NCBI GenBank assembly: GCA_964413955.1
Contig: CAYPUD010000002.1
Span: 1 to 24,331 of the forward strand
From: an uncultured Methanosarcinales archaeon
GTDB lineage: Archaea; Nanobdellota; Nanobdellia; Woesearchaeales; ARS49
Length of the DNA stretch: 24,331 nucleotides
Direction: 5' to 3'
Positions 1-24,331 of the stretch are shown one piece after another. Numbering within the stretch: position 1 is the first letter of the stretch; each line of letters begins with the position of its first letter. The notes below the pieces were generated by a model, which searched no databases, was not told the DNA's origin, and saw nothing but the letters and a program-made list of their open reading frames with translations. The position numbers and the translations under genes are program-made.

Positions 1-35
1 TAAGATTCTTTTGCTGGTTTTTATGACATTATTCG

Positions 36-180
36 CAAACAGGACGCCTCTTGTTTAAATAAAGAGTTTTCTTCTGTTGCATCTCACATTGCTTCGGACG
101 CCCTCTTGTTCAGTTCAGGAGCTTTCTGTCCCTGCTCATTACACAATCCCTTGCGCTCATTTTTCATCTGAAGAATTATT
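36..180. repeat. Copy 1 (partial) of a dispersed non-coding element: AAACAGGACGCC followed by 2 clear and 1 degenerate ~55-nt-periodic palindromic units
   Basis: Units ctcttg-tttaaat-aaagag (48-66), ctcttg-ttcagtt-caggag (103-121) and degenerate tcattt-ttcatct-gaagaa (157-175). 36-70 closely matches 18349-18380 and 24270-24304. Confidence 0.75.
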
Positions 181-205
181 TGCCCTGCTTGTTTCAACAT
201 TTATT

Positions 206-5368: not shown

Positions 5369-5965
5369 TTATCTGCTTCCGTCTGCTTGCCTTTCTATTT
5401 CTAGTTTTTTCTGTATCGCCAGACTCTTGTTTTGGTCTAGTTTGTAAGCTCCTAATAATTCTTCTGATAGTGCTTCTGGAAAGCTTTTCTTTTTGTTGAA
5501 GCACTTTTCGTATGTCCCTTGTGAGAAGAACTTTAGCGCAATATCAATTCTTCTTTGTGGTGCGCAGTCCACTGCTTTTGGATACCTCGCTCCGCCATAC
5601 TCTATGGTCACTATCTCCTCTCGTGGAGCTGCATTCTCTAATGCCTGCACAAAGACTTTTATTGGGTTCTCCCCTGTTTTTTTCTCTATGATTTCAAATG
5701 CTTTCTGGACAAGCTTGTATGCTTGTGGCGCTGTTCCTGTGCAATGCCCTGAGCTTCTCTTGTGTTTTTTTCCTTTATGCCCTGGAACCATCACTCTGTT
5801 GATCAGCCTTTCCACTATGAATGTCTTGCTTTTGTGGAATCTTTTTCCTGCATACCTTGCTCCTGTTTTCGGGACAATTCTTGGATCTAGTGTCACATAT
5901 TTTTTAAGCCCAGAATCCTCTACCTTGATTCCTTCCACACTCCATTTGTTGAATGCTAATACCAT
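5369..5965 (-). CDS. rps7: 30S ribosomal protein S7 (uS7)
   Basis: IVERLINRVM, ENAAPREE, AVDCAPQRRIDIAL and operon position. Confidence 0.97.
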   Translation of the reverse strand: MVLAFNKWSVEGIKVEDSGLKKYVTLDPRIVPKTGARYAGKRFHKSKTFIVERLINRVMVPGHKGKKHKRSSGHCTGTAPQAYKLVQKAFEIIEKKTGENPIKVFVQALENAAPREEIVTIEYGGARYPKAVDCAPQRRIDIALKFFSQGTYEKCFNKKKSFPEALSEELLGAYKLDQNKSLAIQKKLEIERQADGSR

Positions 5966-5967
5966 TT

Positions 5968-6405
5968 TTACTTCCTTGCTTTTTCTATTTTGCCTCTCAA
6001 CAAGGCATTGAGGCTCTGATCATTTACTTTAAGCACTTGCCACCTGACCCCTGGGATGTCTCCTTTTGATTTCCCCTTTGTGCCACCTATGCACTCTATC
6101 AGGACTTCGTCGTGCTCATCAACTAGCTTTTGCGCCCCGTCCCCTGGAAGGAATGCTGTTATCTGCCTGCCGTTCTTCACTAATTGTACCCTTACGCATT
6201 TTCTCTTTGCGCTGTTTGGCTGTTTTGCTTCCAACTCGAGTTTTTCAAGGACAATGCCTTTTGCCTGGCTTGATCCCACTAATGGGTCTGATTTCTTTTT
6301 TAGGTTGAATATTCGTCTGACATACTTATCATTCATCAGAAGCCCTTTGTGCCTTCTCTTCTTCAGGGCTTTTGCTGTGTTTTGTCCTTTTGATTTGTTT
6401 CCCAT
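5968..6405 (-). CDS. rps12: 30S ribosomal protein S12 (uS12)
   Basis: [25 protein letters not shown] and GDIPGVR. Confidence 0.97.
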
Positions 6406-14709: not shown

Positions 14710-14820
14710 CGGACCGGAAGGGATTCGAACCCTCGACCACTCGGTTTCCTTTTCAATTGATCTCTCAATTGATTGCTGGAATTAAAAGCCGAGTGCTCTA
14801 CCAGGCTGAGCTACCGGTCC
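14710..14820 (-). tRNA. tRNA-Lys(UUU) with a 37-nt intron at position 37/38; CCA not encoded
   Basis: Acceptor GGACCGG/CCGGTCC, D arm GCTC-AGCCTGGTA-GAGC, anticodon stem CTCGG/CCGAG with CT-TTT-A, and T arm GAGGG-TTCGAAT-CCCTT. The exons sum to 74 nt. Confidence 0.95.
14746..14782 (-). other. tRNA intron with bulge-helix-bulge ends
   Basis: CTTT (positions 32-35) pairs with intron AAGG, with 3-nt bulges TAA and AAA. Internal hairpin CAATTGA-GAGA-TCAATTG. Confidence 0.9.
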
Positions 14821-17913: not shown

Positions 17914-18105
17914 TTAGATTACAATTCTAATCTTCTTGTCAGAACTGCCTGGTTTTCTGATGTTCACTAATTTATAATCTTTGATATTGTGTTTTTCAGC
18001 ATATGCCTTTGCTGCTTCTTCTGTTTTGAATGTCTTTGGCCTTTTCTTTCGTGGCTTTATCTTTGCAGCCCTTCTTCTTCTCCTTTTTACTGTTTTGTTT
18101 GCCAT
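17914..18105 (-). CDS. Small highly basic protein (63 aa), putative nucleic-acid binding
   Basis: Arg/Lys-rich N-tail plus RPKTFKTEEAAKAYAEKH. Its own TATA box is 30 nt upstream. Confidence 0.8.
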   Translation of the reverse strand: MANKTVKRRRRRAAKIKPRKKRPKTFKTEEAAKAYAEKHNIKDYKLVNIRKPGSSDKKIRIVI

Positions 18106-18127: not shown

Positions 18128-18142
18128 CTTTTTAAGCTTTTC
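18128..18142 (-). promoter_or_regulatory. BRE-TATA promoter for the 63-aa gene
   Basis: Minus strand gaaaagc-ttaaaaag, with the first TATA T at 18135. Confidence 0.6.
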
Positions 18143-18150
18143 TTTAATTT

Positions 18151-18490
18151 GGCTAAGTCAAGTTAAGTATGTCTTTGCCGCCAAGCATAGTATTTAGTTA
18201 GATTTTTTCAACACAAATCTTATTTTTAGTCCAAAAAGATCTTCTGCCCATTTTTTTTGCTTAAGAAAAGACTCTATACCCTAAAACCTGCTAATAACTC
18301 TGCGATTTTTCTTTCAGAATAAAACAGCAACAATATCTGTTTGCGTCCAAACAGGACGCCTAATGTTCAGCTCAAGAGTCTCCCCGCTTCTGCGTTACTA
18401 AGGACATCCTCGCTTATTGCTCATGTTCAAGAGTATTCTCCCTTGCTCAAAACATTTTACAGTACACTTCTTGTTCAGCCTAGGAGTATT
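18151..18490. other. Copy 2 (complete) of the dispersed non-coding element: conserved end motif, hairpin and three ~54-nt-periodic palindromic units (ncRNA, MITE or operator array)
   Basis: ggctaagtca...tgccgccaa (18151-18184), tatttttagt (18221), tgcgat (18301), hairpin gcgtcc-aaaca-ggacgc (18343-18359), and units at 18360-18378, 18414-18433 and 18468-18486. Collinear with 24121-24305. Confidence 0.75.
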
Positions 18491-18631
18491 TTTCTAGTTC
18501 TGTTTTTGTCATGGTTTGTTGATCTGTTACTCTGAGCGATTGTTGGTTTTTTCTTGTTGAGTTTTTGCTTGTTTAGGCTTTTGCCTTAATATTTCATGAC
18601 ATTTATATACTTGTTTTGTTTTTTTTGTTGT

Positions 18632-19225
18632 ATGGACATTAAATTATCTCAAAAGGTCTTCAAGGCTTTGGCCAGTCCCACGAGGATATCTATCCTTAAG
18701 GAATTGGATAGGAGAAGGTTCACGCAATCAGAGCTTTCTGAGAATCTTGGTTTTGCTGTTCCTACTATCAAACAGCATTTGCAGGATCTGGAAAAAGCAG
18801 GCCTAGTTAGCTGCATTGAGAATGGCAGAAAGTGGAAGTATTTTGAGCTCTCTAAAGAGGGCAAAGCTATCCTGCATCCTGAAGAAAAAAAGATCTGGAT
18901 CTTGCTGGGAACTTTTGCAGTCAGTGTTGTCGGAGGAATTATTGCTGCTGCTCAGAGATTCATTTCTCATTCTAGTGCGGATGAAGGCAGGTTGGCTTTA
19001 GCTGAAAATTACGTTGCCACAACAGCAGCTCAAAAAGGAAATGTTGTTTTTACTGGATCCCCTGTTGCGCATGCTTCAACTGCCAATTTTCCTGTCCTTT
19101 TTTTTGTTTTTATTGCTCTGGCAGTCATTAGTTTTTTGGGTGTTTTGTTTTTTTTGGCCAGAAGAAAGAGGATGATGAGGTTGCTGAAATCTGCTGGAAG
19201 CTTATCTGGAGGTAAAATAAAATGA
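18632..19225 (+). CDS. ArsR-like winged-HTH regulator with two C-terminal transmembrane helices
   Basis: FKALASPTRISILKEL...SELSENLG...TIKQHLQDLEKAGLV, with hydrophobic IWILLGTFAVSVVGGIIAAA and VLFFVFIALAVISFLGVLFFL. TATA at 18602-18609 supports the ATG at 18632. Confidence 0.85.
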   Translation: MDIKLSQKVFKALASPTRISILKELDRRRFTQSELSENLGFAVPTIKQHLQDLEKAGLVSCIENGRKWKYFELSKEGKAILHPEEKKIWILLGTFAVSVVGGIIAAAQRFISHSSADEGRLALAENYVATTAAQKGNVVFTGSPVAHASTANFPVLFFVFIALAVISFLGVLFFLARRKRMMRLLKSAGSLSGGKIK

Positions 19226-24098: not shown

Positions 24099-24113
24099 TT
24101 ATAAATGTTTTTC
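24099..24113 (-). promoter_or_regulatory. BRE-TATA promoter for the transketolase genes
   Basis: Minus strand gaaaaaca-tttataa, with the first TATA T at 24105. Confidence 0.65.
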
Positions 24114-24120
24114 TCAGTAA

Positions 24121-24331
24121 GGCTAAGTCAACTTTAGTGTGCCTATGCCGCCAAACGTGGTCCTCGAATGATTTCTTTCTGCATAGGTTTATTTTTAGTT
24201 TAAAACAACATTCTGTCTTGCGATCTTTATCTTCCGAAAAGAACTTCAACAAATAATAAGTACGCGTCCAAGCAGGACGCCTATTGTTTAACTCAAGAGT
24301 TTTCTTCCGTTACTTTTCACAGCATCAAGAA
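24121..24331. other. Copy 3 of the dispersed non-coding element (cut by the window end)
   Basis: ggctaagtca...tgccgccaa (24121-24154), tatttttagt (24190), tgcgat (24219), hairpin gcgtcc-aagca-ggacgc (24264-24280) and unit ctattg-tttaact-caagag (24281-24299). Confidence 0.75.

Follow-up and report, generated by a model that had tools for sequence, protein, structure and literature searches.

What is the intergenic segment that begins at position 18151 of this archaeal DNA, in which a conserved scaffold is followed by a GC-rich hairpin and a short periodic array? The window (the whole stretch of DNA analysed, 24,331 nt) carries genes for the archaeal RNA polymerase subunits A', A'', B' and B'', for ribosomal proteins and for an intron-containing tRNA. 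Among reference genomes, a Woesearchaeota MAG is the closest, its B' subunit sharing 80% amino-acid identity. The tRNA was located by Rfam at 14710-14820 on the minus strand (111 nt, 59 bits; presumably with an intron), and ARAGORN in bacterial mode called none in the window. The "scaffold, hairpin and mini-array" is very probably one copy of a high-copy, non-coding MITE family of a Woesearchaeota genome, and the evidence for this assignment is presented below.

Copies in the window and in longer contigs

Three copies are present in the window, designated A, B and C in the order of their positions (Table 1). An earlier note on this DNA, made from the sequence alone, had described the segments starting at 18151 and 24121 as collinear, and pairwise alignment of 18151-18490 with the region from 24121 to the window end bore this out. 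The end motif of both copies spans 34-40 nt and was recovered by nhmmer; the 40-nt box common to copies B and C opens with GGCTAAGTCAA. The motif tatttttagt was found at +70 in copy B and at +69 in copy C, tgcgat occurs in both, and each has the hairpin GCGTCC-AARCA-GGACGC, the right arm of which coincides with the opening 6 nt of array unit 1. The partial third copy, A, was found at 31-190, with two units. All three copies (3 of 3) are intergenic and in the plus orientation, and the called genes of the contig have no recorded transposase, cas, tnpB or RT domain, again as had been described.

Two claims of the earlier note had to be amended. The extra segment of ∼51 nt exists, but pairwise alignment places it in copy B and not, as had been stated, in copy C; it represents a second, diverged "M" module. 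The periodic array of copy B has a well-conserved first unit, but the later units have decayed. In the coverage profile, copy B strongly resembles other copies as far as ∼18390 and weakly beyond that point, and no homology is left by ∼18495. Copy B has no recognisable 3' inverted repeat; a decayed one ending at 18585 was considered and rejected, as it showed no measurable similarity. In all three window copies the 3' inverted repeat is not recognisable and the L-type repeat alone has been kept, and the mobility of these copies therefore rests on their membership of the family. Copies B and C are probably immobile relics, the 3' inverted repeat of which would have been lost or recombined away.

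Positions 1 and 24331 of the window both lie inside repeat copies, and the contig was thus evidently broken by the assembler at the repeat family. In another sample the organism is represented by a 31.6-kb contig (L001/L004/L008), which reaches beyond both window ends and contains a fourth copy (D) after the next gene downstream of copy C. In longer contigs of the same organism copy C has three units in all (L004:7477->∼7190), and copy A is the tail of a six-unit array.

Two of the genes that neighbour copy B deserve a remark. For the ArsR-type HTH/membrane gene at 18596-19225 (plus strand), ATG 18632 is the probable start rather than the initial ATG of the reading frame, 18596; TTTATATA is present at 18602-18609, 30 nt upstream of ATG 18632. 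The divergent gene at 17914-18105 (minus strand) encodes a very basic protein of 63 amino acids (MANKTVKRRRRRAAKIKPRKKRPK...), which has no Pfam match and is identical in three other metagenome assemblies.

Table 1. Element copies, their parts and nearby promoter motifs in the window, and perfect target duplications of complete copies in other contigs.
Feature	Position	Strand	Description or evidence
Copy A, 3' part of a 6-unit array	1..190	+	5' part beyond the window start, seen in L011
Units of copy A	42-99, 98-148	+	
Hairpin remnant of copy A	31-47	+	ATTCGC-AAACA-GGACGC
TATA-like hexamer CTTAAA of the divergent 63-aa gene	18131..18136	-	14 nt outside the end of copy B
Copy B, MITE-like element	18151..18495	+	L-type terminal inverted repeat, scaffold, hairpin, one good unit, decayed units
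L-type terminal inverted repeat of copy B	18151..18190	+	GGCTAAGTCAAGTTAAGTATGTCTTTGCCGCCAAGCATAG; nhmmer E 2.4e-8
Second M-like module of copy B, diverged	∼18241-18290	+	Pairwise alignment
M module of copy B	18296..18341	+	AACTCTGCGAT + T-run + ...GAATAAAAC; HMM annotation
Junction hairpin of copy B	18343..18359	+	GCGTCC-AAACA-GGACGC
Array unit 1 of copy B, ∼55-nt minisatellite unit	18354..18412	+	Unit HMM match 18354-18380
Decayed further units of copy B	18413-18495	+	Coverage profile
TATA box TTTATA of the divergent transketolase-N gene	24100..24105	-	15 nt outside the end of copy C; ATG 24071
Copy C, cut by the window end	24121..24331	+	
L-type terminal inverted repeat of copy C	24121..24160	+	nhmmer E 2.6e-10
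Junction hairpin of copy C	24264..24280	+	GCGTCC-AAGCA-GGACGC, followed by unit 1 (24275-24329)
Perfect 9-mer duplication	L057		GCACCGACG; 9/9 identical
Perfect 9-mer duplication	L069		CTCTAACAA; 9/9 identical
Perfect 9-mer duplication	L070		CTATTTAAG; 9/9 identical
Perfect 9-mer duplication	L068		AATGATTGC; 9/9 identical

A dispersed family with inverted repeats and target duplications

The distribution of the element was assessed with HMMs for four modules and with sequence patterns. The HMMs yielded at least 43 loci (clusters) in contigs of this Woesearchaeota population that total ∼220 kb; the similarity is thus not limited to the copies in the window, and the family is a high-copy one. 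It accounts for ∼6% of the bases in these 220 kb, a density that is over-estimated because the contigs were found through the element itself. One degenerate unit pattern matched 28 contigs in the JGI metagenome Ga0164318, which contains the organism (among these, L075 is the same contig as L006). Patterns for the end motif and the unit, exact or degenerate, gave chance single matches only in 596 Gb of GTDB species genomes, with the exception of contig L158, which belongs to the same population. Chance alone thus falls far short of explaining the similarity among the copies. No match was obtained with three patterns in the IMG/VR viral contigs, nor was the element found in phage and plasmid collections or in 1.19 Mb around the RNA polymerase operons of 80 related species (Woesearchaeota/Nanoarchaeota). 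The existence of very MITE-rich Woesearchaeota genome(s) has already been noted in a census (PMC11602168).

Eight complete copies of 281–520 bp were identified; copies with an X array are longer. Each is bounded by terminal inverted repeats of ∼40 bp (GGCTAAGTCAACTT...). With nhmmer we obtained 42 inverted-repeat matches, the pairs of which are inverted and 281–520 bp apart; the far end of many copies is the 5' box in reverse complement. The order of the modules in a complete element is the L-type inverted repeat (GGCTAAGTCAACTTTAGTGTGCCTATGCCGCC...), an optional X array, one to three M modules (each consisting of AACTCTGCGAT and a T-run), a 6-bp GC hairpin, one to six tandem units of ∼55 nt each, and the R-type inverted repeat, which ends with ...GGCACTAACTCATTTAAGTTGACTTAGCC. 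There is no coding capacity: only short open reading frames are present, with stops in all frames. The predicted fold of a complete copy goes through the inverted repeats, which form a terminal stem (z −3.4).

The complete copies are flanked by direct repeats of 9 bp, which are perfect in four of the eight (Table 1) and match at 6–7 of the 9 positions in the other four. Mismatched pairs of flanks, used as the null, gave at most 6 matches and mostly no more than 4. Inverted repeats of ∼40 bp together with 9-bp duplications are the signature of a DDE transposase, and we are therefore confident that the element is a MITE, a non-autonomous transposon of the DDE type that harbours an internal minisatellite. 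The MITE would be moved in trans by a DDE transposase whose staggered cuts are 9 bp apart. No autonomous element with inverted repeats like GGCTAAGTCAACTT was found in the collections searched, in which this organism is incompletely covered. Beside a lone inverted repeat of L069 the adjacent genes proved to be ArsR/TauE and not a transposase.

The X module consists of hairpin-plus-unit repeats arrayed in inverted orientation, and every repeat has a complete hairpin of its own (for instance TGAGCC-AAACA-GGCTCA). It is present in L034, L036, L041 (for example at L041:8927-9180), L051, L058 and L062. Long copies thereby carry opposed arrays (X and units), which is reminiscent of foldback elements.

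Strains differ both in the number of units and in the flanks of the copies. At the same locus two, three or five units were found in L005, L004/L006 and L007, respectively, which derive from different samples. Tandem units would expand or contract via slippage or unequal recombination. Which flank joins which copy differs between L004 on the one hand and L057 and L066 on the other: the same copy has different flanks depending on the sample (L004:5940-6390, L057:9155-9674, L066:∼5770-6316). The transketolase gene in L005 (L005:1494-1785) likewise has other upstream neighbours. All contigs are metagenomic and some "recombinants" could be assembly chimeras, and the flank differences thus reflect either recombination between dispersed copies or such chimeras. 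A clean empty site was not recovered among the strains compared, which differ in unit number and flanks. The differences in unit number and flanks are as expected for a minisatellite inside a dispersed repeat.

Spacing between element ends and promoters

When the flanks of the 27 unique element ends were read outward, ten had a TATA-like hexamer beginning at offset 14 and fourteen had one beginning at 14–16, with a background rate of 0.005 per position (P about 1e-16). From the element end to the next ATG the distance is typically ∼45 nt. Since TATA-like hexamers in this organism peak 29–31 nt before the ATGs, the hexamers near the element ends are real promoters of leaderless genes. At the perfect duplications the layout is element end, 9-bp duplication, ∼5 nt (the BRE position) and TATA. 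Copies B and C of the window conform to the spacing rule on the side of the divergent 63-aa and transketolase genes, respectively; at copy B the ATG of the 63-aa gene (18105) lies 45 nt from the element end.

An insertion sequence (IS) of the same population shows a comparable spacing. Contig L158 opens with a MITE end that is 99% identical to L051, followed by an IS of 1124 bp (166-1289) that has GGCTTTGTAGAAACCC ends and encodes a DDE_Tnp_1 transposase of 343 amino acids. This transposase has 152 homologues, most of them on short unlabelled metagenome contigs; the few named ones are mainly from Nanoarchaeota, Woesearchaeota or Aenigmatarchaeota. IS of this type (IS4/IS5 superfamily, ∼1.12 kb, ends GGCTYTGYAGAAACCC, transposase of 330–345 amino acids) are found at L158:166-1289, L159:2202-3324 and in L160-L177, which are DPANN and related metagenome contigs. 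Duplications of 8–9 bp flank the IS copies at a dozen other sites. The right end of the IS is 14–16 nt from a TATA-like motif in 11–12 of 12 sites, the left end in none of six. Beyond the right end, the ATG of the next gene is ∼45 nt away (up to ∼90) and the gene has the same direction as the transposase gene. L158 (QMZS01000053.1) is labelled Aenigmatarchaeota (Guaymas B56_G9), whereas its MITE end and flank are 99% identical to those of Woesearchaeota contig L051; this conflict may reflect mis-binning or an element common to DPANN lineages.

The IS ends (GGCTYTGYAGAAACCC) and those of the MITE (GGCTAAGTCAACTT) have only GGCT at the tips in common, and a role of the IS as mobiliser of the MITE is therefore not supported; distant members of the IS transposase family (55% identity) showed no MITE-like ends. 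Because an IS with unrelated ends has the same register, the spacing points to the choice of the insertion site rather than to a function of the MITE box.

This bears on the possibility that the element is a promoter-associated regulatory module. The terminal box might activate or insulate from an upstream site whose distance to TATA is held constant, as the 14-nt spacing at half of the ends would allow, and the body, with its T-runs within the M modules, might terminate or insulate read-through between neighbouring genes. BOX, Correia and BrickBuilt elements alter the expression of neighbouring genes, as outlined in PMC3049150 and PMC4596501. We consider such a module unlikely as the explanation of the element: the IS has an equal spacing, three of the eight complete copies have a promoter at neither end, and the target duplications show that the copies arrived by transposition. 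A regulatory role is compatible with the MITE explanation as a secondary, co-opted effect.

Overall, the fixed register suggests promoter-registered integration. The transposase would choose a site in a fixed register just upstream of BRE/TATA, and the duplication would then leave the promoter intact. It is conceivable, although we put this forward tentatively, that DPANN transposons (the MITE and the DDE_Tnp_1 IS) integrate in a fixed register because their transposase reads the TBP/TFB-bound promoter or its bent DNA and not simply a sequence motif, in which case this would be an archaeal counterpart of Ty3/TFIIIB targeting. With similar caution, such recognition could account for the order of 9-bp target, ∼5 nt and TATA and for the fixed orientation of the IS. 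Sequence-directed targeting is an equally possible alternative to protein-guided targeting. The Ty3 retrotransposon targets TFIIIB-bound Pol III promoters, and by analogy, if integration were registered to a TBP/TFIIB-like complex, both the 14-nt rule and the biased orientation of the IS would follow. As a eukaryotic LTR retroelement, Ty3 uses an integrase, whereas the present element is an archaeal DNA transposon and its protein contact is hypothetical. A full-text literature search on promoter- or TATA-targeted insertion in archaea gave nothing relevant.

Structure, relation to known systems and significance

The junction hairpin was compared across 32 copies: 98.4% of the cells are paired, compensatory changes are present at three of the six pairs, and none of 500 shuffles was as good. 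G-T and A-C intermediates are equally common, and thus neither strand is favoured. Within the element only the junction hairpin covaries; the stems of the units do not. These data show that the complementarity of the hairpin is actively maintained, with some selection on structure, which plain "junk" does not explain; the hairpin may act in a transposition intermediate or as an RNA or DNA structure. The left arm always matches the 6-mer that opens the first unit (32 copies), and units open with at least five different 6-mers.

The earlier note had raised the possibility of a structured non-coding RNA, in which a scaffold and a guide-like array would serve an effector encoded elsewhere. The order of scaffold and periodic array, a TATA-like sequence ∼15–25 nt before the GGC start of copies B and C, and the covariation of the junction hairpin are in line with such an RNA, which would be tracrRNA-, omega-RNA- or crRNA-like. 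The remaining results do not support it, and we regard it as very unlikely. The unit stem CTCTTG/CAAGAG is 75% paired, which is no better than in shuffles (487/500), and RNAalifold predicted no pairs in the array units. The "variable" parts of the units are 59% identical to each other, compared to 32% for shuffled sequence, and are therefore diverged paralogues and not independent guides. Targets for the variable segments were sought in ∼330 kb of DNA from the same population, with one match compared to six in the shuffled control. The fold of copy B is not unusually stable relative to shuffles (z −0.9 and −1.1 for the two strands). Rfam searches with the window and the complete copies, at gathering and permissive thresholds, gave no match to the element and only sub-threshold noise; the single match in the window is the tRNA, outside the element. 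The scaffold contains runs of T5–T8, which would terminate archaeal RNA polymerase. Furthermore, the nearby TATA boxes belong to divergent genes, and the dispersal is explained by the inverted repeats and the target duplications. ARAGORN found nothing within the element. Readings as C/D-box RNA, H/ACA RNA, split tRNA or coding repeats were considered by eye and dropped, given that conserved boxes are lacking, that the GC 6-mers in later units have nothing to pair with, and that every frame contains stops.

A non-autonomous mobile element had also been considered in the earlier note, and this has held for the kind of element, a MITE, but not for the proposed IS200/IS605 or REP type. That a Y1 (HUH) transposase moves the element as hairpin-ended single-stranded DNA, as in IS200/IS605 or REP/RAYT, is most improbable. 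Each copy does have a GC-rich hairpin and the copies are intergenic, but the hairpin is internal and not terminal, and the ends are ∼40-bp inverted repeats with 9-bp duplications. Y1 transposition (IS200/IS605) yields neither such inverted repeats nor target duplications, and no TnpA, RAYT or TnpB gene is present in any contig examined. The repeat-spacer-like periodicity of ∼55 nt would be in line with a CRISPR array that has decayed together with its leader, or with an old segmental duplication of local origin, but the probability of this is negligible given the inverted repeats and target duplications, the >40 dispersed loci with the same scaffold, a constant part that is only ∼76% alike, "spacers" that are mutually homologous (59%), the lack of cas genes among the called genes of the contig, and the lack of a CRISPR-DR match in Rfam.

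The MITE is functionally closest to BOX and to BrickBuilt-type modular MITEs, a class defined not by homology but by its architecture, in which end modules are combined with a tandem module that varies between strains. The pneumococcal BOX element (boxA - boxB(n) - boxC; PMC3049150) is likewise modular, intergenic and non-coding; its conserved end modules pair mutually, its tandem internal modules vary in number between strains, and it is regarded as MITE-like and can adjoin promoters. BOX has a bacterial host and no sequence relationship to the present element, and its tandem module is 45 nt compared to ∼55 nt here (PMC3049150). Unlike BOX, the element is bounded by clear inverted repeats of ∼40 bp and flanked by 9-bp duplications; it also has an additional M module, a junction hairpin with compensatory changes and a fixed spacing relative to archaeal TATA boxes. 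The abstract of the study on the BrickBuilt MITE of Porphyromonas gingivalis (PMC4596501) describes an element composed of leader, tandem minisatellite and tail; its ends are small inverted repeats, and it is always intergenic, multi-copy and of limited host range, all as found here. By the same account BrickBuilt differs in its 23-nt unit without a spacer-like part, its 19 copies and its bacterial host; promoter activity resides inside that element, and the abstract mentions no fixed distance to host promoters (PMC4596501).

At the level of the ends, the element resembles the IS903 group in its GGC termini, its 9-bp duplication and the implied DDE chemistry. Insertion sequences of this group, in the IS5 family, have GGC ends and a 9-bp duplication. 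The co-occurring DDE_Tnp_1 IS of the population has GGCT termini. The inverted repeats of the MITE match no IS found in the population. The mobilising enzyme might belong to this family.

We know of no IS903-group element that targets promoters. The element is thus a MITE of a known general kind, in which the set of modules, the compensated hairpin and the promoter register are, as far as checked, new.

For annotation, the family explains why intergenic regions of this Woesearchaeota resemble "structured RNA arrays" and why its contigs break there, and its recognition should keep such loci from being filed as CRISPR-like or guide RNAs. A single modular MITE makes up ∼6% of the sampled DNA (over-estimated, as stated above) in a reduced DPANN genome; it varies in unit number and may mediate rearrangements between strains. 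If the spacing to TATA reflects true target selection, the element would offer a simple and testable example of archaeal transposition guided by promoters, and could be a natural tool that places DNA just upstream of archaeal promoters. The target duplication would in that case preserve the promoter, and the elements could spread through a tiny, gene-dense genome without inactivating its genes.
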